A DNA stretch of 64,000 bases from Mobula hypostoma. Lineage: Eukaryota. The stretch lies in the NCBI RefSeq assembly GCF_963921235.1, contig NC_086097.1:35838001-35902000 (forward strand), read 5' to 3'. How positions within the stretch are numbered: position 1 is the first letter of the stretch; each line of letters begins with the position of its first letter. This document shows positions 7,965 to 63,552 of the stretch, piece by piece. The notes beneath the pieces were generated by a model, which worked only from the letters and a program-made list of their open reading frames with translations, was not told the origin of the DNA and made no database searches. Both the position numbers and the translations under genes were made by a program.

Positions 7965-10900
7965 CATAAGACCATAAGACATTGGAGCAGAATTAGGCCA
8001 TTCAGCCCATCTTGTCTGCTCCGCCATTGCATTCTGGCTGATCCCAGTCCCACTCAACCCCATACACCTGCCTTTTCACCATAATCTTTGATGCCCTGAC
8101 CAATCAGGAAACTATCAAATTTCGCTTTAAATATACTCATGGTTTTGGCCTTCACAGCTGTCTGTGGCAGAGCATTCCACATATTCATTACTCTCTGGCT
8201 AAAAAAATTCCTCCTTACCTCTGTTCTAAAAGGTCACCCCTCAATTTTGAGGCTGTGCCCTCTAGTTCTGGACACTCCCACCAGAGGAAACATCCCCTCC
8301 ACAACCACCTTATCTGGTCCTTTCAACATTCAGTAGGTTTCAATCAGATCCCCTAACAGTTTTCTAAATTCCAGTGAGCACAGGCCCAAAGCTGCCAAAT
8401 GCTCCTCATATGTTAACCCCTTCATTCCCAAAATCATCCTTTTGAACCTCCTCTGGACTTTCTCCAATTACAACATCCTTACTGAGATATGGGGCCCAAA
8501 ACTGTTGACAATACTCCAAGTATCTTATAAAGCTTCAGCATTATCTCCTTTTTTTATATAGTCCTCTTAAGATGAATACCAACATTGCATTTGCCTTTTT
8601 TACCACAGACTCAATCTGTAAATGGGCCTTCTGGGAGTTTTACACAGGACTCTTCAGTCCCTCTGCACCTCTGATGTTTGAATTTTCTCCGCTTTTAGAT
8701 AATAGTCTGCACTTTTGTTCCTTTCACTAAAATGTGTTATCATACATTTCCCAACACTGTATTCCATCAGTCACTTTTTTGCCCATTCTTCCAATTTGTC
8801 TAAGTCCTTCTGCAATTGCATTGTTTCCTCAGCACTACCTACCCCTCCAGCTAGCTTCAATTTGGGTGAACCAAATTAGTAAGGGTGATGAGGAAGAGGA
8901 TTTCTTGGAATGCATGCGGGATGGTTTTCAGAACCAACATGTCGAGGAACCAACTAGAGAGCAGGCCATTCTAGACTGAGTATTGAGAAATGAGGAAGGG
9001 TTAGTTAGCAATCTTGTCGTGCGAGGTGCTTTGGGTAAGAGTGACCATAATATGGTGGAATTCTTCATTAAGATGGAGAGTGATATAGTTAATTCAGAAA
9101 CAAAGGTTCTGAACTTAAAGAAGGGTAACTTTGAAGGTATGAGATGTGAATTAGCTAAGATAGACTGGCAAATGATACTTAAAGGGTTGACGGTAGATAT
9201 GCAATGGCAAGCATTTAAAGATCACATGGATGAACTACAACAATTGTTCATCCCAGTTTCACAAAAGAATAAACCAGGGAAGGTAGTGCAGCTGTGGCTG
9301 ACAAGGGAGTTTAGGGATAGTATCAATTCCAAAGAAGAAACATACAAATTAGCCAGAAAAAGCGGCACACCTGAGGACTGGGAGAAATTCAGAGTCCAGC
9401 AGAGGAGGACAAAGGGCTTAATTAGGAGAGGGAAAAAATATTATGAGAGAAAACTGGCAGGGAACATAAAAACTGACTGTAAAAGCTTTTATAGATATGT
9501 GAAAAGAAAAAGATTGGTTAAGACAAATGTAGGTCCCTTACAGTCAGAAACAGGTGAATTGATCATGGGGAACAAGGACATGGCAGACCAATTGAATAAT
9601 TACTTTGGTTCTGTCTTCACTAAGGAGGACATAAATAATCTTCCAGAAATAGTAGGGGACAGAGGGTCTAGTGAGATGGAGGAACTGAGGGAAATACATG
9701 TTAGTAGGGAAGTGGTGTTAGGTAAATTGAAGGGATTAAAGGCAGATAAATCCCCAGGGCCAGATGGTCTGCAACCCAGAGTGCTTAAGGAAGTAGCCCA
9801 AGAAATAGTGGATACATTAGTGATAATTTTTCAAAACTCTTTAGATTCTGGATTAGTTCCTGAGGATTGGAGGGTGGCTAATGTAACCCCGCTTTTTTAA
9901 AAAGGAGGGAGAGAGAAACTGGGGAATTATAGACCGGTTAGCCTGACATCGGTGGTGGGGAAAATGCTAGAGTCAGTTATCAAAGAAGTGATAACAGCAC
10001 ATTTGGAAAGCAGTGAAATCATCGGACAAAGTCAGCATGGATTTGTGAAAGGAAAATCATGTCTGACGAATCTCACAGAATTTTTTGAGGATGTAACTAG
10101 TAGAGTGGATAGGGGAGAACCAGTGGATGTGGTATATTTGGATTTTCAAAAGGCTTTTGACAAGGTCGCACACAGGAGATTAGTGTGCAAACTTAAAGCA
10201 CATGGTATTGGGGGTATGGTATTGATGTGGATAGAGAATTAGTTGGCAGAAAGGAAGCAAAGAGTGGGAATAAACAGGACCTTTTCAGAATGGCAGGCAG
10301 TGACTAGTGGGGTACCACAAGGCTCAGTGCTGGGACCCCAGTTGTTTACAATATATATTAATGACTTAGACGAGGGAATTAAATGCAGCATCTCCAAGTT
10401 TGCGGATGACATGAAGCTGGGTGGCAGTGTTAGCTGTGGGGAGGATGCTAAGAGGATGCAGGGTGACTTGGATAGGTTAGGTGAGTGGGCAAATTCATGG
10501 CAGATGCAATTTAATGTAGATAAATGTGAGGTTATCCACTTTGGTGGCAAGAACAGGAAAACAGATTATTATCTGAATGGTGGCCGATTAAGAAAAGGGG
10601 AGGTGCAACGAGACCTGGGCGTCATTGTACACCAGTCGTTGAAAGTGGGCACGCAGGTACAGCAGGCGGTGAAAAAGGCGAATGGTATGCTGGCATTCAT
10701 AGCAAGAGGATTCGAGTACAGGAGTAGGGAGGTACTACTGCAGTTGTACAAGGCCTTGGTGAGACCACATCTGGAGTATTGTGTGCAGTTTTGGTCCCCT
10801 AATCTGAGGAAAGACATTCTTGCCATGGAGGGAGCACAAAGAAGGTTCACCAGATTGATTCCTGGGATGGCAGGACTTTCATATGCTGAAAGACTGGATT

Positions 10901-12455: not shown

Positions 12456-13227
12456 AAAATGCTCTGATTGAAGCAGAAAATTATCCTCAAGATAAAATAA
12501 ACTTGGGATGTTATTCCCCTGCTTGTCACTGCAAATCTACTGTAGTGAAGAAAGATTATTATCTTCTTTCTTTGCAGAAATACTTCTGATAAAGATCAGA
12601 CCAGCAATATGACATACATTTTATTCAGTAATTTTTTTCCAAAGGAATCAGGAAAAGATCCAATGAGTATAGTACACTAATACAACTAGACATTTTGAAA
12701 ACATACAAAGAAATCTGATCCAATGGAATGGGAAAACAATTCTTTCTCTGCACTTGAAGTACACTAGGAGGAAAATAAATCTTACTGAACTCCAGGGTGT
12801 ACAAACGACTCTGTTGCCTTGTGTGTTTGACTTGGGATGCACTGTGATATGCATATCAAGTTCGAACCAAAATATTCCTTTGATAAGTGTTAATCCCAAG
12901 CCAGCCACACTAAGCAAGGAAGAAGGCTAAGTGCACAGATGTGAGGAATATTCTGGAAATAGAATCGCTACTAGATTATAACATATCTTTAAATAAATAT
13001 TAAACTCATTCTCTGTCACTATAATTAATCCTCTGTTTGCAGCGCAACCCTCCAGAAAAAGGCTTAGCTAAGCTGTAGAGGGAGTAGAATGCAGCTGCAT
13101 CTCATAAATACTGTCTCCGTGATGGAGAAAGCTGTCTGGTTGGAGTAAATCAAATGCCAGTTTATAGAACTGCTGCAATAGGCAAGAAAGATAATTCTCC
13201 CTCACTGAAGTCACATTCATAGGATCT

Positions 13228-13330
13228 AAGCAACACACAGGAAGTGCTGGAGGAACTCAGCAGGCCAGGCAGCATCTTTAGAAGAGAGTCAACAGTCGGT
13301 GTTTCGAGCCGAGACACTGCAGCAGGGGTT
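13228..13330 (-). mobile_element. Penelope-like element pLTR fragment with decayed hammerhead
   Basis: AACACACAGGAAGTGCTGGAGGAACTCAGCAGGCCAGGCAGCATC...CAGTCGGTGTTTCGAGCCGAGAC; homologous to 21435-21535 and 63450-63550. Confidence 0.75.
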
Positions 13331-14568
13331 TCTCATGTTCCTTCATAGGGTCCAAGTGAGGTTAGGTGAATTCGCCAGGTGACATAGCAAAGTGATGAAC
13401 TGGCATCCTGGTGCCCAGGCTATTGCTCTGAAAAGTTAACATTTTATCATGGAACCTGCAGAACTTACATTCATTTGCTTAAAGAAATTTAGAATTCAAA
13501 ATGGAAGAATGGAATCTATTAAGACTGTCAGAAGAAAGTTATCTAATTCATGAAGTTTCTTAAAGGAAAGACGTCTGCTGTGGCCTGTATGTGATCCCTG
13601 GTCCACAGAAAACAGAGTTGACTTTTAACTGCCCTCTAAAAAGGCTGAACAAGCCACTTCCATTCAGGGACCACTTTGATTGTGAAATTAATACAGGTGG
13701 CACCGTGAAGTAAAAAAAGTCAAGAATAATTTAAATGTACATTCATCACAACAGTTCCTTGCCTAAGGAAACAAGCTGTGGAAAAAGCCTGTCAGGATAG
13801 AATCCAGTCCTTTACAAAACATCACTGTATTTACCAGCCTTTCAGGTGTATGTGAAATGGGGACACAATGCACGATACAAATGCTATTATTCCAGTCTGA
13901 AGTTACAAAGAATGCCCAGAAATATTAGAGTCTGATGCTGACACTTGAACAAGTGGAAAATCAATTCCTTTAAACGCAAAGCTTCCAACTGAGTTTGAAC
14001 ATAAATTGTGTTGACAAATACAAATGGAGCAGCTGTGGTGAGAGACCGACCAACCAATATAATCTAAATGTGAAGTGTAATTGAACTGGCCTATGCTATA
14101 TAAAGAATGCCACCTGATGGGGACTCAAAACAAACTGTTGCTTAACTACAACAGACCTCTATTTAATTACAAAAGGGAGCATCACACAGCTAAAATGTAA
14201 TATCTACTGACCACTCTTTTAAATCCAGAATAAGTAATGTGTTTTTTGATTAAATGCATTTTGACATTTTCCAATCAGACCAGGGTGCTTATTTATATGG
14301 AACTGTTTTAGAAGCAAGGTGCATTTTGGAAGTCAAATTGGAAATTTTAATTCCATGGGAAAATCAGCTGAGAGCCTATTTGCATTGCTTCAGGGAAGCA
14401 CTGAAATCCAGGATGATATTTCCCAAAATAATAGAAGATTCTGGAACTACTCAGTAGATCGGGGGCATCAGAGGAAAGAGAAACCGAGTTGATATTCATC
14501 AGAACTGGGAAGGAGAGAAAATATTATTGAATTCAACAATTTCAGGGAACTTGCTTTCGCTTTGAAGT

Positions 14569-17829: not shown

Positions 17830-20632
17830 GGGCTAAAGTGTGTGTACTTAAAAAAATGCAAGGAGCATCAGGAACAAAGGTGATGAACTGAGAGCTTGGA
17901 TACATACATGGAATTATGATGTAGTGGCCATTACAGAGACTTGGCTGGCACCAGGGCGGGAATGGATTCTCAATATTCCTGGATTTCAGTGCTTTAAAAA
18001 GGATAGAGAGGGGGAAAAAGGGGAGGAGGGGAGGCATTACTGGTCAGGGATACTATTACAGCTACAGAAAGGGTGGGTAATGTAGCAGGATCCTCTTTTG
18101 AGTCAATATGGGTGGAAGTCAGGAACAGGGAGGGAGCAGATACTCTATTGGGAGTATTCTGTAGGCCCCCTGGTAGCACAGAGATACCGAAGAGCAGTCT
18201 GGGAGGCAGATTTTGGAAAGGTGCAAAAATAACAGGGTTGTTATCATGGGTGACTTTAACTTCCCTAATATTGATTGGCACCTGATTCGTTCCAATGGTT
18301 TAGATGGGGCAGAGTTTGTTAAATGTGTCCAGGATGGATTCCTGTCACAATATGTTGACAGGCCGACTAGGGGGAATGCCATACTAGATCTAGTATTAGG
18401 TAACGAACCGGGTTAGGTCACAGATCTCTCAGTGGGTGAGCATCTGGGGGACAGTGACCACCGCTCCCTGGCCTTTAACATTATCATGGAAAAGGATAGA
18501 ATCAGAGAGAACAGGAAAATTTTTAACTGGGGAAGGGCAAATTCTGAGGCTATAAGGCTAGAACTTGCAGGTGTGAATTGGGATGATGTTTTTGCAGGGA
18601 AATGTACTAAGGACATGTGGTCAATGTTTAGAGATCTCTTGCAAGATGTTAGGGATAAATTTGTCCTGGTGAGGGAGATAAAGAATGGTAGGATGAAGGA
18701 ACCATGGGTGACAAGTGAGGTGCAGAATCTAGTCAGGTGGAAGAAGGCAGCATACATGAGATTTAGGAAGCAAGGATCAGATGGGTCTATTGAGGAATAC
18801 AGGGTAGCAAGAAAGGAGCTTAAGAAGGGGCTGAGGAGAGCAAGAAGACGGCATGAGTAGGCCTTGGTGTGTAGGGTAAAGGAAAATCCCAAGGCATTCT
18901 TCAATTATGTGAAGAACAAAAGGATAGCAGGAGTGAAGATAGAACCGATTAGAGATAAAGATGGGAAGATGTGCCTGGAGGCTGTGGAAGTGAGCGAGGT
19001 CCTCAATGAATACTTCTCTTCGGTATTCACCAATGAGAGGGAACTTGATGATGGTGAGGACAATATGAGTGAGGTTGATGTTCTGGAGCATGTTGATATT
19101 AAGGGAGAGGAGGTGTTGGATTTGTTAAAATACATTAGGATGGATAAGTCCCCGGGGTCTGACGGAATATTCCCCAGACTGCTCCACAAGGCGAGGGAAG
19201 AGTTTGCTGAGCCTCTGGCTAGGATCTTCATGTCTTCGTTGTCCATGGGAATGGTACCGGAGGATTGGAGAGAGGCAAATGTTGTCCCCTTGTTCAAAAA
19301 AGGTAGTAGGGATAGTCTGGGTAATTATAGACCAGTGAGCCTTACGTCTGTGGTGGGAAAGCTGTTGGAAAAGATTCTTAGAGATAGGATCTATGGGCAT
19401 TTAGAGAATCATGGTCTGATCAGGGACAGTCAGCATGGCTTTGTGAAGGGCAGATCATGTCTAACAAGCCTGATAGAGTTCTTTGAGGAAGTGACCAGGC
19501 ATGTGGGTAAGGGTAGTGCAGTGGATGTAATCTACATGGATTTTAGTAAGGCATTTGACAAGGTTCCACACAGTAGGCTTATTCAGAAAGTCAGAAGGCA
19601 TGGGATCCAGGGAAATTTGGCCAGTTGGTCAGAATTGACTTGCCTGCAGAAAGCAGAGGGTCGTGGTGGAGGTAGTACATTCGGATTGGAGGGTTGTGAC
19701 TAGTGGTGTGCCACAAGGATCGGTTCTGGGACCTCTACTTTTCATGATTTTTATTAATGACCTGGATGTGGGGGTAGAAGGGTGGGTTGGCAAGTTTGCA
19801 GATGACACAAAGGTTGGTCGTGTTGTGGATAGTGTCAAGGATTGTCGAAGATTGCAGAGAGACATTGATAAGATGCACAAGTGGGCTGAGAAGTGGCAGA
19901 TGGAGTTCAACCCGGAGAAGTGTGAGGTGGTACACTTTCGAAGGACAAACTCCAAGGCAGAGTACAAAATAGATGGCAGGATACTTGGAAGGGTGGAGGA
20001 GCAGAGGGATCTGGGGGTACATGTCCACACATCCCTGAAAGTTGCCTCACAGGTAGATAGGGTAGTTAAGAAAGCTTCTGGAGTGTTAGCTTTCATAAGT
20101 TGAGGGATAGAGTTTAAGATTCGCCAGGTAATGATGCAGCTCTATAAAACTCTGGTTAGGCCACACTTGGAGAACTGTGTCCAGTTCTGGTCGCCTCACT
20201 GTAGGAAGGATGTGGAAGCATTGGAAAGGGTACAGAGGAGATTTACCAGGATGCTGCCTGGTTTAGAAAGTATGCATTATGATCAGAGAATAAGGGAGCT
20301 AGGGCTTTACTCTTTGGAGGGAAGGAGAATGAGAGGAGACATGATAGAGGTATACAAGATAATATGATAGAGGTATACAAGATAGAGTGGACAGCCAGCG
20401 CCTCTTCCCCAGGGCACCACTGCTCAATAAAAGAGGACATGGCTTTAAGGTAAGTGGTGGGAAGTTCAAGGGGGATATTAGAGGAAGGTTTTTTACTCAG
20501 AGAGTGGTTGGTGTGTTGAATGCACTGCCTGAGTCAGTGGTGGAGGCAGATACACTAGTGAAATTTAAGAGGCTACTGGACAGGTATATGGTAGAATTTA
20601 AGGTTGGGGGTTATATGGGAGGCAGGGTTTAA
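17830..20632 (+). pseudogene. CR1 ORF2 (APE endonuclease and reverse transcriptase), disrupted
   Basis: Pieces 18073-18285, 18213-18416, 18432-18860, 18864-19703, 19663-20103, 20131-20367 and 20387-20632, with frameshifts, stops and a ~23-bp duplication at 20341-20384. Confidence 0.93.
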
Positions 20633-21398
20633 GGGTCGGCACAACATTGTGGGCCGAAGGGCCTGTACTGTGCTGTACTGTTCTATGTTTTATCTCAGTG
20701 GAAGGCAACTTCACCTGCTCCTGCATCTTTTTCTTTACTTGTGTTCTTATAGGATCCAGAGAGCCGCTGTTTTACGGTTGAGGAGCATATTCGCCAAATT
20801 TATATTTAAATTATAAGAAAATCTGATTTGTAAGGTATCATTGCATGTCAGTTAAATGCTACATTGTTAAGGGAAGATTATGCATTGCTCTGATTGATAA
20901 ATTAAACCAACATTTTTCAAAATATCTTATTTGCAAGTTAAGAATACTGCTAAAGCACCTTAAACCCATTATCTTCCGCAGATATATCTGAACACACCCT
21001 TTTAATGCAGGAAACAGATGTCACTGGGCTGGAAGGGGAGAGGTTAGGGGGAAAAAAAACATTAGTCTGTGGCAGACATTCGAAGTAGATCAGCTTCCCA
21101 CTGAAACTTAGAATGTTGTCCTCCTCTGTCTTTGAAGTTCATTCCATTAACTTGTCTCACTGCTTAAAATCAAGTTGATAATATCTATTAAATAAGAGGG
21201 TAATTTATAGTTATTAATGGAATCTTGAAGTCTTGGTGACCTCATGTCAATGTTCTCAGTGACAAAGGAGAGAGGTGGTTGATCTTCCTCCTCACCATAA
21301 TTTTTTTGTTATTCATCACTGCTAAATCAAGAAATTCTAATCAAACATAAAGTGTTTAAATAAACCACCTAGCATCAGGCAACTAAAGAATGAATCTA

Positions 21399-21536
21399 AA
21401 AACTCCAACACGAGGAAATCTGCAGATGCTGGAATAGTCCTGACGAAGGGTCTCGGCCTGAAACGTCGACTGTACCTCTTCCTAGAGATGCTGCCAGGCC
21501 TGCTGCGTTCACCAGCAACTTTTATGTGTGTTGCTG
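21399..21536 (+). mobile_element. 138-bp Penelope-derived insertion (inverted tail piece joined to a pLTR with hammerhead), 15-bp TSD
   Basis: Flanked by TAAAGAATGAATCTA at 21384-21398 and 21537-21551. The first ~35 bp is the reverse complement of the family tail (TTCCAGCATCTGCAGATTTCCTCGTGTT); the rest matches the pLTR at 63450-63550. Confidence 0.85.
21434..21473 (+). ncRNA. Minimal type I hammerhead ribozyme motif (Penelope-associated)
   Basis: ATAGTC (stem I), CTGACGA core, A, GGGT-CTCG-GCCT (stem II), GAAA, CG, TC (cleavage after C21467), GACTGT (stem I partner). Helix III is reduced to palindromic ACGT. Confidence 0.8.
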
Positions 21537-22179
21537 TAAAGAATGAATCTATTTGTCTGGGTGAGAACATTTACAAATCATTAATCTCGCACACCTTCAC
21601 ACTTAAATGTGCTCATTTGCTCTTGTATATGCAAAGTAAGTGTCCCATCAGGATATACAGTAAAGCTTTTATTACTTCTAACAGTTGCAACAAGAGGTGA
21701 TTGAATTCTAAAAAAGACCTTTAACTTGTGAGGAGCTATTATTGTTATACATTACTTAATCCAACTGAAATCATTTCAATTAGCAGTCCATTCATAGCCA
21801 TGTAATGAATATAATCTTAGAAAATATCACAATTACTTTCAGTTTACCATGATGCCAGGAAATGCTGTAAGCTTGTAATTAGTGGAAAATCATTCTCTTC
21901 GATATATAGCTATACTCTAATTATCAGTTGGAGTTGAGCCAAACTCAAAACATCTGGTGGGTGGTAGTTCTCAAGCATATCTTAAAATGTTTTGGAAGAT
22001 CTACTGAAATAAATTATACTTATAGTTTGATTTCATTTTAGTTTTAACCCATAATAACTGATGAAAACCTCCTTCAAATGCTGGTTGGAAATGTTGTTCA
22101 TAAAATGAACCATTCAATTTGTAGAGAAAATGCACTCTTCAAAACGCAGGAATTGTACATGGACTAACCACCAATTATT

Positions 22180-22427: not shown

Positions 22428-22913
22428 TGAGGGGTGATTGATAAGTTCGTGGCCTGAGGTAGAAGGAGTCAATTTTAGAAAACCTAGCACATTTCTTTTT
22501 CAACATAGTCCCCCTCCTACATGAACACATTTAGTCCAGCAGTCGTGGAGCATACGGATCCCTTCCTTGTAGAAGTGGTCCACAGCAGGGGTGATTGATA
22601 AATTTGTGGCCTAAGGTACAAGGCGATGAGTTGTACAGCTCTCTTTATATGCACATGCAGTTTAACTCTTTGAGCGAAAATGTAGAAAGTTTGAACTTTC
22701 TCCTCATCTCCTTCTACCTTAGGCCACGAACTTATCAATCACCCCTGCTGTGGACCATTTCTGAAGGTCCAAGACGCCGACTTCTACAAAGAAGGGATCC
22801 GTATGCTCCACGACCACTGGACTAAGTGTGTAAATGTAGGAAAAATAAATGTGCTAGGTTTTCTAAAATTGACTCCTTCTACCCGAGGCCACGAATTTAT
22901 CAATCACCCCTCG
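22428..22913. mobile_element. Mariner-derived foldback MITE
   Basis: TA|(T/C)GAGGGGTGATTGATAAGTTCGTGGCC ... GGCCACGAATTTATCAATCACCCCTCG|TA. Arms of ~200 bp are inverted and carry the transposase C-terminus DFYKEGIRMLHDHWTKCVNVG. Confidence 0.9.
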
Positions 22914-24466: not shown

Positions 24467-24484
24467 CAACAGATGAATGAAAGG

Positions 24485-25075
24485 AGCAACAAAGTGCTGG
24501 AGGCACTCCGCAGGTCAGGAGAATTTTTTAAATAACCAGTCACTGCTTTGGGCTAAGACCCTTCATCAGGACCAAAAAGAAAGAGGCCAGAAGCCAGGAT
24601 AAGAGGGGAAGGGAAGGAGGAGCATAAGCTGCCAAGTAACAGGTGAATCCAGGTGAGGGGGGAAGGCAGGATTGTAGGGGAAGGGAGAAAAGAGCATGGT
24701 GTGAGATGCTGGGAGGTGATCAGTGGAAGAGGCAAAGGGCTGAAGAAGAAGGAATCTGATAGGAGAGGACAGCAGACCATGGAATAAAGGAAAGGAGGCG
24801 GGGAACTGGCAGGAGGAAGGTGATCAGCAGTTTGTGAGGGTGGAGAAGGAGAAAGGGACGGGGTCACAGGGATGAGGAGGTGGTGTCAGGACAGAGCAGA
24901 GTAGTTAGAGGAATCAATGCCGTCAGGTTGTAGACTATGAAGGTGGAACACGAGGTGTTGCTCCTCCAGCCTGTGCCTGGCCTCAACATGGGAGCAGAAG
25001 CGGCTGTGGACAGGGACGGCCACGTCAGTGTGGGAATGTGGAGTGAGTTGAAAAGACTTACCACTGGGTGATCCT
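24485..25075 (-). mobile_element. Penelope-like element 3' region (GIY-YIG C-terminus and pLTR)
   Basis: HFNSLH...RHRLEEQHLVFHLHSLQPDG, a pyrimidine tract, then GGTCCTGATGAAGGGTCTTAGCCCAAAG. Confidence 0.82.
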
Positions 25076-25626
25076 GACACACACTCATACAAGGGTTCCT
25101 GAAGGTAAGCCTTTTACCAAGCGCCCAGACAAGAACAGGCCCATAAACCTGCCATAACTCATGCACAGCATGTGCTTGCCAAATAGAATTCTCCCATAAC
25201 ATTGTAAGCTGGCCTATGAATCAATACAATTCCCCATGAACCAAAGGAGCATTGTAAGTTGAATTAAGCATAAATCTCACAGGAAGCACAAGACATTTAG
25301 AATTGCTGATTGCCATTCAATTTTGTCACAGTAATGAGTTCCACAGCACCAGTGAGCACTCACATGAAAGGAAGACGTGACAGCCTATACTGCAGACAGA
25401 CATGGGAGATCTGAGACGGGGGATCCCAGCAGAAATAAGATCGGAGTGCAGAAACCACCTGGCCGTACAGCCACATGAAAGGAAGAAACTCCTAACAAAA
25501 TACTACTTACATTGTAGGCTTACACCCTACTTTCATTTGGTTACCTCGTGCTATATATTACATTTAGCTCTGAGCTACCACAATTCTGACCTTTAAAAAT
25601 ACCATTAGCTCTTTAAGTGGATGTTT

Positions 25627-28410
25627 TAAGACCATAAGACCATAAGACAAAGGAGCAGAAGTTGGCCATTTGGCCCATCGAGTCTGCTCCGCCATTTTAT
25701 CATGAGCTGATCCATTTTATCCTATTTAGTCCCACTGCCCCGCCTTCTCACCATAACCTTTGATGCCCTGGCTACTCAGATACCTATCAATCTCTGCCTT
25801 AAATACGCCCAATGACTTGGCCTCCACTGCTGCCTGTGGCAACAAATTCCATAGATTCACCACCCTCTGACTAAAAAAATTTCTTTGTATTTCTGTTCTG
25901 AAAGGGCGCCCTTCAATCCTGAAGTCATGCCCTCTCGTACTAGACTCCCCCATCATGGGAAACAGCTTTGACACATCCACTCTGTCCATGCCTTTTAACA
26001 TTCGAAATGTTTCTATGAGGTCTCCCCTCATTCTTCTAAACTCCAAGGAATACAGTCCAAGAGCGGACAAACGTTCCTCATATGTTAACCCTCTCATTCC
26101 CGGAATCATTCTCGTGAATCTTCTCTGTACCCTCTCCAACGTCAGCACATCCTTTCTTAAATAAGGAGACCAAAACTGCCCACAGTACTCCAAGTGAGGT
26201 CTCACCAGCGCCTTATAGAGCCTCAACATCACATCCCTGCTCCTATACTCTATTCCTCTAGAAATGAATGCCAACATTGCATTCGCCTTCTTCACTACTG
26301 ACTCAACCTGGAGGTTAACTTTAAGGGTATCCTGTACGAGGACTCCCAAGTCCCGTTGCATCTCAGAACTTTGAATTCTTCCCCCATTTAAATAATAGTC
26401 TGTCCGTTTATTTTTTCTGCCAAAGTGCATAACCATACACTTTCCAACATTGTACTTCATTTGCCACTTCTCTGCCCATTTTTCCAATCTATCCAAGTCT
26501 CTCTGCAGACTCTCCGTTTCCTCAGCACTACCGGCCCCTCCACCTATCTTCGTATCATCAGCAAACTTAGCCACAAAGCCATCTATTCCATAATCTAAAT
26601 CGCTGATGTACAATGTAAAAAGAAGCGGCCCCAACACTGATCCCTGTGGAACACCACTGGTAACCGGCAGCCAACCAGAATAGGATCCCTTTATTCCCGC
26701 TCTCTGTTTCCTGCCAATCAGCCAACGCTCTATCCACATATGTAACTTTTCCGTAATTCCATGGGCTCTTATCTTGTTAAGTAGCCTCATGTGTGGCACC
26801 TTGTCAAACGCCTTCTGAAAATCCAAATATACAACATCCACTGCATCTCCCTTGTCTAGCCTACTGGTAATTTCCTCAAAAAATTGTAATAGGTTTGTCA
26901 GGCAGGATTTTCCTTTAAGGAATCCATGCTGAGTTCTGCCTATCTTGTCATATGCCTCCAGGTACTCTGTAACCTTATCCTTGACAATCGACTCCAACAA
27001 CTTCCCAACCACCGACGTCAAGCTAACAGGTCTATAATTTCCTTTTTGCTTCCTTGCCCCCTTCTTAAATAGCGGAGTGACATTTGCAATCTTCCAGTCT
27101 TCCGGAACCATGCCAGAATCTATCGACTTTTGAAAGATCATCGCTAATGCCTCCGCAATCTCCACAGCTACTTCCTTCAGAACACGAGGGTGCATTCCAT
27201 CTGGTCCAGGAGATTTATCGACCTTTAGCCTATTCAGCTTCCTGAGTACTTTCTCTGTCGTAATTGTGACTGCGCACACTTCTCTTCCCTGCCACCCTTG
27301 AGTGTCCGGTATCCTGCTGTCTTCCTCAGTGAAGACTGATGTAAAATACTTGTTCAGTTCCTCTGCCATCTCCTCATCTCCCATTACAATTTCTCCAGCA
27401 TCATTTTCTATCGGTCCTATATCTACTCTCACCTGTCTTTTACTCTTTATATACTTGAAAAAGCTTTTAGTATCCTCTTTGATATTATTTGCTAGTTTCC
27501 TTTCATAGTTAATCTTTTCTCTCTTAATGACCTTCTTGGTTTCCTTTTGTAAGGTTTTAAAAACTTCCCAATCCTCTGTCTTCCCACTAATTTTTGCTTC
27601 CTTGTATGCCCTCTCCTTTGCTTTAACTTTGGCTTTGACTTCTCTTGTCAGCCACTGTTGCATCCTTTTTCCACTCGAAAATTTCTTCTTTTTTGGAATA
27701 TACCTGTCTTGAACATTCCTCATTTTTCGCATAAACTCCAGCCACTGCTGCTCTGCCGTCTTTCCCGCCAGTGTCTCTTTCCAGTCAACTTTGGCCAGTT
27801 CCTCTCTCATGCCACTGTAATTTCCTTTACTCCACTGAAACACCGACACATCAGATTTCGGCTTCTCTTTTTCTAATTTCACAGTGAACTCAATCATGTT
27901 ATGATCACTGCCTCCTAAGGGTTCCTTCACCTCAATCTCTCCAATCACCTCTGGTTCATTACACAATACCCAATCCAGTACAGCCGATCCCCTAGTGGGC
28001 TCAACAACAAGCTGTTCTAAAAAGCCATCTTGCAGACATTCTACAAATTCTCTCTCTTGAGATCCAGTGCCAACCTGATTTTTCCAATCTACTCACATGT
28101 TAAAATCCCCCACAATTATCATAACACTGCCCTTCTGACAAGCCTTTTCTATTTCCAGTTGTAATTTGTAGTCCACATCCCTGCAGCTGTTTGGAGGACT
28201 ATAAATAACTGCCATCAGGGTCTTTTTACCCCTGTTATTCCTTAGCTCAACCCATAAAGATTCTGCACCTTCCGATCCTATATCACCTCTTTCTAATGAT
28301 TTAATATCATTTCTTACCAATAAAGCCACGCCTCCCCCTCTGCCTACCTTCCTATCCTTCCGATACACCATGTATCCTTGGACGTTCAGCTCCCAGAGAC
28401 ATGCATCCTT
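25627..28410 (-). mobile_element. Young 5'-truncated CR1 LINE with nearly intact ORF2
   Basis: (TCTTATGG)n tail at ~25627-25648. The ORF2 frame runs from ~28400 to 25726 with a single in-frame TGA at 28093-28095. Possible short TSD TTTAAGA. Confidence 0.96.
25726..27966 (-). CDS. CR1 ORF2 reverse transcriptase (746-aa open portion of a truncated ORF2)
   Basis: [57 protein letters not shown] and RPHLEYC all lie in one uninterrupted frame. Confidence 0.92.
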   Translation of the reverse strand: MCNEPEVIGEIEVKEPLGGSDHNMIEFTVKLEKEKPKSDVSVFQWSKGNYSGMREELAKVDWKETLAGKTAEQQWLEFMRKMRNVQDRYIPKKKKFSSGKRMQQWLTREVKAKVKAKERAYKEAKISGKTEDWEVFKTLQKETKKVIKREKINYERKLANNIKEDTKSFFKYIKSKRQVRVDIGPIENDAGEIVMGDEEMAEELNKYFTSVFTEEDSRIPDTQGWQGREVCAVTITTEKVLRKLNRLKVDKSPGPDGMHPRVLKEVAVEIAEALAMIFQKSIDSGMVPEDWKIANVTPLFKKGARKQKGNYRPVSLTSVVGKLLESIVKDKVTEYLEAYDKIGRTQHGFLKGKSCLTNLLQFFEEITSRLDKGDAVDVVYLDFQKAFDKVPHMRLLNKIRAHGITEKLHMWIERWLIGRKQRAGIKGSYSGWLPVTSGVPQGSVLGPLLFTLYISDLDYGIDGFVAKFADDTKIGGGAGSAEETESLQRDLDRLEKWAEKWQMKYNVGKCMVMHFGRKNKRTDYYLNGGRIQSSEMQRDLGVLVQDTLKVNLQVESVVKKANAMLAFISRGIEYRSRDVMLRLYKALVRPHLEYCGQFWSPYLRKDVLTLERVQRRFTRMIPGMRGLTYEERLSALGLYSLEFRRMRGDLIETFRMLKGMDRVDVSKLFPMMGESSTRGHDFRIEGRPFRTEIQRNFFSQRVVNLWNLLPQAAVEAKSLGVFKAEIDRYLSSQGIKGYGEKAGQWD

Positions 28411-62772: not shown

Positions 62773-62824
62773 TTTTCATTTACTTTCCTCGTAACTTTTT
62801 TCTCATAACATTAGCTTTAGCTAA

Positions 62825-63552
62825 TGTCCCTCCCACCAATTATCCCTGCAAGTGCTACATCTGCCCATACACCTCCTCCTTCACCTCCATTCAAGGCCCC
62901 AAACAGTTCTTCCAGGTGAGCCAATATTTCCCCTGCGAGTCTGCTGGGGTCCGCTTTTGTATTTGGTTCTCTTGATGCAGCCTCCTCTACATTGGTGAAA
63001 CCCCGTTGTAAATTGGGACACCGCTTCGTCGAGCACCTCCACTCTATCTGCCAAAAGCAGAACTTCCCGGCCCCATTGTCATTGCCATCCCCACATATGG
63101 TCATGGTCTCCCCATGATGGGGCCACCCCAAGGGTGGAGGAGCAACATCTGATGTTCTGTCTGGGTAGCCTCCAACCTGATGGCATGAATATCACTTTCT
63201 TCTTCTGGCAAAAAAAATCCCTCCCCTCCTCCTTCATCTATTCCTCACTCCGACCCCTTACCTTTTCTCACCTGCCTATCACTTCCCTTGGGTCCCCTCC
63301 TCATTCCCTTTCTCCAAATGGTCCACTCTCCTCTCCTGTCAGATTCCTTCTTCTCCAGCCCTTTACCTTTCCTATCCACTTGGGTTCACCTATCACCTTC
63401 TGCCTATCCTCCTTCCACTTCCCCATCTTTTTTATTCTGGTTTCTTCCTTTTCAGTCCTGAAGAAGGGTCTCGGCCCAAAAGCATCGACTGTTTATTCAT
63501 TTCCATAGATACTGTCTGACCTGTCGAGTTCCTCCAGCATTTTGTGTGATTA
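62825..63552 (+). mobile_element. Penelope-like element: GIY-YIG endonuclease C-terminus and pLTR with hammerhead remnant
   Basis: CKCYICPY, FPCESAGV.FCI...LLYIGET...RFVEHL and EEQHLMFCLGSLQPDGMN, then CAGTCCTGAAGAAGGGTCTCGGCCCAAAAGCATCGACTG. Confidence 0.88.

Follow-up and report, generated by a model that had tools for sequence, protein, structure and literature searches.

Penelope-like elements (PLEs) are typically integrated as units with an inverted pseudo-LTR, a tail at one end and duplications of 8-10 bp, as described in the available accounts of Arkhipova et al. (2013; PMC3846280) and Craig et al. (2021; PMC8557442). The latter also describes a CX2-5CxxC finger as a mark of the Neptune and Nematis clades. 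The minimal hammerheads of PLEs, for which G10.1-C11.1 is listed as highly conserved, were reported to show no cleavage as monomers and weak cleavage as dimers (Cervera and De la Peña, 2014; PMC4209133). Dimer cleavage of minimal hammerheads was also attributed to Lünse et al. in a review (PMC6765202), and one of nine Xenopus retrozyme dimers was cleaved (bioRxiv 10.64898/2026.07.22.740005). In the in vitro work described for PAc of Anolis, the protein nicks both strands, reverse transcription starts at two sites that bracket the tail, and uncut RNA is the dominant template; the protein is required for cleavage by the anole ribozyme, and the ribozyme is dispensable for insertion (Frangieh et al., 2024; PMC11167929).

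The window analyzed here is a stretch of 64,000 nucleotides of Mobula hypostoma, and all positions refer to it. It contains an insert of 138 bp bracketed by the perfect direct repeat TAAAGAATGAATCTA (21384-21398 and 21537-21551, identity 15/15), for which the random expectation of a 15-bp repeat pair at set boundaries is ~3e-6. We consider it probable, with good confidence, that a very abundant endonuclease-bearing PLE gave rise to the insert as a severely truncated copy, likely by one two-ended integration, and that this copy was likely dead on arrival. Its parts are as follows.

21384..21398: target-site duplication, left copy; 15-bp repeat, single copy at the empty site of organism D
21399..21435, minus strand: inverted arm of 37 nt consisting of the PLE tail alone; matched in direct orientation behind the pseudo-LTR end elsewhere
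21435..21535, plus strand: forward arm, the final ~101 nt of the pseudo-LTR; 73-84% identity to older pieces in the window
21434..21473, plus strand: minimal type I hammerhead motif, by position-by-position check and descriptor match, with the eight parts below
21434-39/21468-73, plus strand: stem I
21440-21446, plus strand: core CTGACGA
21447, plus strand: extra A, between positions 9 and 10.1
21448-51/21456-59 (21448-21459), plus strand: stem II, first pair G·U
21460-21463, plus strand: GAAA
21463-21466, plus strand: palindrome ACGT, replacing helix III
21467, plus strand: C17, after which the cut is predicted
21536..21536: extra G, absent from the empty site; loose contig ends behind 21535 begin with T
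21537..21551: target-site duplication, right copy; 15-bp repeat, single copy at the empty site of organism D

Contigs of four public runs (X1, X5, X10 and X20) were aligned to 21170-21770. The aligned contigs numbered 40,750 (X1), 45,312, 23,804 and 3,974 and were nearly all on 21400-21536; their summed depths are not taken as copy numbers, and single-copy flanks had a depth of ~6. Run X20, which is RNA by guess, covered the repeat only, and its flanks were without coverage. An 805-nt contig of organism D (run X10) joined 21173-21383 straight to 21537-21756 with one repeat copy, which is the empty site. Thus, the 15-bp repeat is a true target-site duplication, and the 138-bp insert between perfect 15-bp repeats that the initial annotation had proposed is confirmed. 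In organisms A and B, contigs entered the insert from each flank unbroken, and no joint skipping the insert was found in these two organisms among the 15 joints listed of 51. Organism A is probably the source sample and hence not independent. The letters of organism B differed from those of the window at 8 of 516 positions (1.6%) and those of organism D at 18 of 431 (4.2%). As the insert is present in B and absent from D, the insertion is dated between those two splits. The description of the insertion as recent therefore stands with respect to organism D, but it is relative only, given that the less divergent organism B has the insert as well.

The presence of the insert in two organisms, with no empty allele shown in either, also fits retention by the host of a copy whose ribozyme functions in a transcript. 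Such retention is most improbable. The divergence of 1.6% is too small to show constraint, a conserved pair of the hammerhead is already altered, and a six-frame look, which was the only search made for host exons, identified none in the window. The same window contained many fragments of LINE-type reverse transcriptases (e.g., 8980-10899, 18417-20100, and 25729-28092), which we take to be CR1/L2-like and RTE-like. In addition, an element of ~480 bp at 22430-22911, presumably a miniature element of the Tc1/mariner type by its look, has long inverted repeats at its termini and further inverted copies inside (22587-22623 and 22708-22746) and lies within a (GATA)n tract. A perfect 15-bp direct repeat was also found at 25361 and 25472 (25361-25486), with 96 bp between its copies and no match to the PLE query, and thus resembles a further small insert; tandem repeats with a period of 16 bp and a strong base skew occupy ~43.8-47 kb.

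The two ends of the insert differ. The 37-nt tail is found on the left arm only, and the right arm is without it. The tail sequence lies directly 3' of the pseudo-LTR end in the older window copies at 36.5 kb and 38.7 kb as well as in the loose contig ends behind 21535 in 4/4 runs, so that the inverted piece of element tail, first put at ~35 bp, is recovered with a length of 36-37 bp. The uncertainty of one is due to T21435, which is assignable to either arm and is thus the 1 nt shared at the junction. The forward arm extends from the 5' edge of the hammerhead to the tail-less end of the pseudo-LTR, in agreement with the initial placement of the inversion junction at the ribozyme 5' edge, and 4-6 native bases are lost between the two arms. 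G21536 is likely non-templated. A21496 is near-private to the insert, with T in 98% of the aligned contig depth. A junction at the cut site of the ribozyme was also considered and rejected, because the actual junction precedes this site by 32 nt and the insert retains the sequence on either side of it. Moreover, no pile-up of ends at 21468 was found among the six loose-end places listed per run.

A profile search of the window identified nine other copies of the family, two of which were weak (E 3e-7 and 0.5); a doubtful match at 34.6 kb was excluded from this count. Within the family, a pyrimidine-rich spacer precedes the hammerhead, ~60 nt separate the hammerhead from the end GTTGCT, and the tail follows a few bases later. 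The following three copies, all outside the insert, are referred to below.

62820..63549, plus strand: older, longer family copy with a broken zinc finger/GIY-YIG frame end, pyrimidine-rich spacer and decayed hammerhead
24484-25075, minus strand: longer decayed family copy with a broken GIY-YIG frame end, by protein match
13216..13354, minus strand: second, older tiny family insertion of 113 bp with a decayed 13-bp duplication (11/13)

The remnants at 62820-63200 and 24913-25068 matched P0008 with E values of 3e-29 and 4e-8, respectively, and the copy at 62.8-63.5 kb also matched P0001 (E 6e-10). P0001 contains reverse transcriptase (RT) motifs, a CX4CxxC finger and a GIY-YIG stretch whose Pfam match is below the cut-off. 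Its relatives include proteins of 750-925 residues with RVT_1 and GIY-YIG matches. Among the relatives scanned, RVT_1 was found in 5/6 and a GIY-YIG match in 6/6, one of them above the Pfam cut-off. A CX2-5CxxC finger preceded GIY-YIG in P0001 and in seven of the eight relatives checked, and was decayed in the window copy. The family was identified via these relatives because Pfam searches with four short window peptides returned nothing relevant; two scans of metagenome contigs with the family patterns gave 0 matches. Judged by these protein sequences, the family is an endonuclease-bearing PLE of the Neptune/Nematis type. Together with the tail, the pseudo-LTR arm, the duplication and the empty site, this RT/GIY-YIG link bears out the earlier assignment of the insert as a Penelope-like retro-insertion.

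The RT and GIY-YIG frame belongs to the family and not to the 138-bp copy. It was linked via an older subfamily that is 73% identical to the insert, and the upstream sequence of the insert's own subfamily differs. As the frame is tied only to the older subfamily, the direct source of the insert could be non-autonomous. In the second tiny insertion, at 13216-13354, the forward arm begins ~3 nt inside the stem I edge, and the left stub of ~15 nt is weakly inverted-tail-like, with a score reached by 239 of 5000 random 22-mers.

The hammerhead of the insert has its core, extra A, stem II, GAAA, ACGT and C21467 exactly where they were first annotated, and the conserved positions C3-A9, G12-A14, A15.1-U16.1, and H17 are all present. 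Its core, extra base and palindrome match the published motif, which supports the assignment to the Penelope-type minimal type I hammerheads of the dimer class. A minimal type I descriptor, one of the checks suggested at the outset, gave this motif as its single match in the window, with both strands scanned, whereas 100 block shuffles yielded a mean of 0.04 matches per window. Another, a search with the Rfam hammerhead models, returned no hammerhead match either at gathering or at E<=10; since minimal forms are without helix III, this is no evidence against the motif.

The ribozyme was nevertheless wrongly described as intact. Position 11.1 (21459) is T, and G10.1·U11.1 (G21448·T21459) thus replaces the conserved G10.1-C11.1. 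Given that C was found at 11.1 in 6/7 older window copies of alignment A1 and in 35%, 37%, 67%, and 26% of the depth in X1, X5, X10, and X20, respectively, shares that lean to the reference letter, the change, as read from these letters, is of the CpG type and occurred in the insert copy or in its source subfamily. The CpGs, also described as still intact, are so for six of them, but the seventh, at 11.1, has decayed. In addition, the sixth pair of stem I (A21434-T21473) was created by the junction, as the native subfamily has T there. The loose ends before 21435 (175, 190, 199, and 36 records in the four runs) show the native sequence of the subfamily, which runs through T21435. Thus, of the six stem I pairs, only the outer A-U is junction-made, and the other five are native.

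Folding z-scores of the motif and the insert were weak (-1.0 to -1.6). The minimum-energy fold of the monomer was a rod in which the core GACG is paired with CGUC (-12.4 kcal/mol), and the active double hammerhead had -14.3 kcal/mol, whereas two rods and the best duplex reached -24.8 and -33.1, respectively, all in nearest-neighbor energies that omit core tertiary contacts and Mg2+. The hammerhead is thus predicted to adopt an inactive fold and to be a passenger that would cleave poorly or not at all because of G10.1·U11.1, the missing helix III and the lack of a partner nearby. The effect of G10.1·U11.1 on the cleavage rate is taken from general hammerhead work, and no direct test of it was found in the literature.

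A two-ended integration would account for this anatomy. The protein of the element would nick AT-rich DNA on both strands, at positions 15 bp from each other, and reverse transcription would be primed from both nicks at two internal start sites that bracket the tail. One cDNA would start at the tail end and halt 4-6 nt before the second start site. The other would start at the pseudo-LTR end, copy the uncut ribozyme and halt at the ribozyme 5' edge. The cDNA ends would then be joined through 1 nt of common sequence. An uncut template fits because both sides of the cut site are present in the insert. That the tail arm halts just before the second site suggests that both primers were on one RNA, as in twin priming, and we lean slightly toward this geometry over two separate RNAs.

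Alternatively, a longer PLE copy could have been inserted and later shortened or rearranged via internal deletion and inversion. Older copies in the window do often show deletions and decay. The insert, however, is young, with two or three changes and a perfect duplication, its outer ends are the two natural ends of the family, and organisms A and B agree wherever both are covered. Later shortening is therefore very unlikely.

A further reading, compatible with two-ended integration and refining it, concerns the position of the junction. The forward arm might be complete and end at a discrete 5' end of the RNA, in which case tiny inserts would be the PLE counterpart of "strong-stop" cDNAs, with the element's own message primed at its 5'-proximal ribozyme/tail site. 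The RNA end would be either a transcription start at an initiator-like YYANWYY (A = 21436) or, immediately upstream, a splice-acceptor-like CAG at which the RNA was processed. The initiator consensus is YYANWYY, and the match at A21436 is found in both subfamilies. Moreover, 2/9 other window copies begin at +0 and ~+3 of the edge, for which P is ~0.013-0.07 at an assumed chance of 2-5% each, and three more begin within ~25 nt upstream. Similarly, 8 of the 12 contig rows listed (of 83) end at 21435-21440, seven of them with <=4 letters between. Thus, forward arms seem to begin at the ribozyme 5' edge more often than expected by chance. Related observations are that an intron of D. virilis terminates at the 5' end of helix I (PMC4209133), and that in PAc, where the 5' end of the reading frame harbors both the ribozyme and the start sites, products became shorter as the templates did (PMC11167929).

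Against such an RNA end, the numbers are small, and the reference itself breaks at 21435-21436, so that loose ends and joints pile up there by construction. The inverted repeat of stem I can also guide short-homology joining. Furthermore, seven other tail joints begin well downstream of the edge, the loose ends before 21435-21436 in X20 (RNA by guess) are native, unspliced upstream sequence, and the start site reported for D. virilis is 46 bp before the 75-bp intron, ~120 nt upstream of the ribozyme (PMC2377424). A discrete RNA end at this place is thus regarded as a tentative possibility. More speculative is the fuller version, in which a single RNA gives rise to tiny inserts as complete products with two ends: priming would occur at the two sites that flank the tail in the 5'-proximal pseudo-LTR, one cDNA would stop at the second primer and the other would run off a discrete 5' end of the RNA that coincides with the hammerhead's first base. 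If so, the genome would preserve, as a fossil map, both the place where PLE transcripts begin and the twin priming carried out by a dimeric PLE protein; the ribozyme would serve as a marker of the message's 5' end, with cutting unnecessary. The literature searched, which included few subscription papers and excluded supplements, contained nothing on twin priming with PLEs and no boundary at the stem I edge, either for strong-stop products or for short insertions.

Among the 15 joints listed of 51, 4 rows were the native join of pseudo-LTR to tail and 7 rows were an inverted tail ending at 21428-21435 joined to a forward arm. The forward arms in these seven began at 21464, 21490, 21498, 21499, 21502, 21510, and 21511, with 1-2 contigs per run and depths of 6-18 (single-copy flanks ~6). 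Thus, the two-armed architecture recurs with a variable junction. As the sides of the listed joints were 20-26 letters at 85% likeness and tail arms below ~20 nt are undetectable, the accumulation of tail-arm ends close to the second start site could reflect detection. Exact twins of the junction would not register as joints, and short twin contigs would fall among 115,740 unlisted pieces; a near-twin, the record 2 contig of X1 (depth 5.7), crosses the junction with 6 gap and 6 other letters. A joint from 21430 to 21508 in X5 (organism B) had 26 letters between and a depth of 205. This joint shows that longer tailed arms exist, for which two templates would be needed, and that some junctions are amplified.

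The joint from 21430 to 21508, at a depth of 205 versus ~6 for single copy, may be amplified in organism B and is a better candidate for a mini-family with a fixed junction than the 138-bp insert. Joints returning from 21470 to 21436 were also observed at other loci (3, 2, and 1 contigs in X1, X5, and X10, respectively) and may be tandems of the hammerhead alone. Another joint of X5, in which 10 tail letters lie between 21535 and a return to 21436, could be a tandem unit of 110 nt.

The initial annotation had further suggested a small non-autonomous family, akin to retrozymes, as the possible source of the 138-bp unit, which would spread as such and self-cleave through the pairing of two copies. 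Retrozymes are described as PLE derivatives, with one cartilaginous fish included (bioRxiv 10.64898/2026.07.22.740005), and the hammerhead passes a strict descriptor. The subfamily of the insert has its own upstream sequence and may be non-autonomous, joints back to 21436 exist in three runs, and at least one other junction is amplified. No tandem units of the insert were found at the locus, however, and the descriptor had a single match in 64 kb. The insert ends at the two PLE priming sites and not at the cut site, its inverted tail has the geometry of a by-product, G10.1·U11.1 is present, and the junctions differ among the loci listed, the seven other tail-to-pseudo-LTR junctions being at different places. 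The suggestion is accordingly regarded as quite unlikely.

A truncated product of two-ended integration thus remains our preferred explanation. Its parts, a minimal hammerhead, a tail, an inverted arm and a duplication, are already described, and a single locus, one of very many PLE scraps, has little weight alone. Its value is that of a clean example, dated by a known empty site, of the smallest two-armed product, with a geometry consistent with priming from the two known start sites. Should the accumulation of forward arms at the ribozyme 5' edge prove genuine, such inserts would provide a handle on how PLE integration is completed and on the role of the hammerhead.

Twin-primed L1 insertions were reportedly described by Ostertag and Kazazian in 2001. 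Similar to them, the insert consists of two adjacent, non-overlapping pieces of what may be one RNA, one of them inverted, with few bases lost and one duplication. Different from them, its priming sites are internal and defined by the element, and it contains no poly(A).

With Pen2a_Av of Adineta vaga (Arkhipova et al., 2013; PMC3846280) and the scheme of Craig et al. (2021; PMC8557442), in the parts of both accounts used here, the insert shares head-to-head arms with their 3' ends outward, a tail of 30-40 nt at one end, 5' truncation, a duplication and an AT-rich target. Compared with the Pen2a_Av-type unit, its inverted arm is tail only, it has no reading frame, and its arms do not overlap, so that no fold-back is formed. 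Its duplication is 15 bp, versus 8-10 bp for rotifer PLEs (PMC3846280).

Similar to the metazoan PLE hammerheads in the available description of Cervera and De la Peña (2014; PMC4209133), that of the insert possesses a full core, an extra base (9/10.1) and a palindromic 15.1-16.1 (15.2-16.2) that replaces helix III; a location in the pseudo-LTR and mostly solo copies are also common to both. When compared by sequence, the insert differs from those motifs by G·U in place of G10.1-C11.1 and by a stem II of 4 bp versus 7-8 bp in the schistosome motif.

PAc, a Poseidon element, shares with the insert outer ends at the tail end and at the tail-less pseudo-LTR end and a ribozyme copied uncut (PMC11167929). 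The family of the insert belongs to another clade, with a zinc-finger linker, and no reading frame starts in its ribozyme region, judging from the insert. The two-ended product was not reconstituted in the sections of the PAc study that were available (PMC11167929). Finally, the metazoan non-LTR retrozymes are, according to the accounts available, similarly short and non-coding, with a type I hammerhead and kinship to PLE pseudo-LTRs (PMC7761336; bioRxiv 10.64898/2026.07.22.740005). They are by definition tandem units with circular RNA, whereas the insert is solo and carries an inverted tail.
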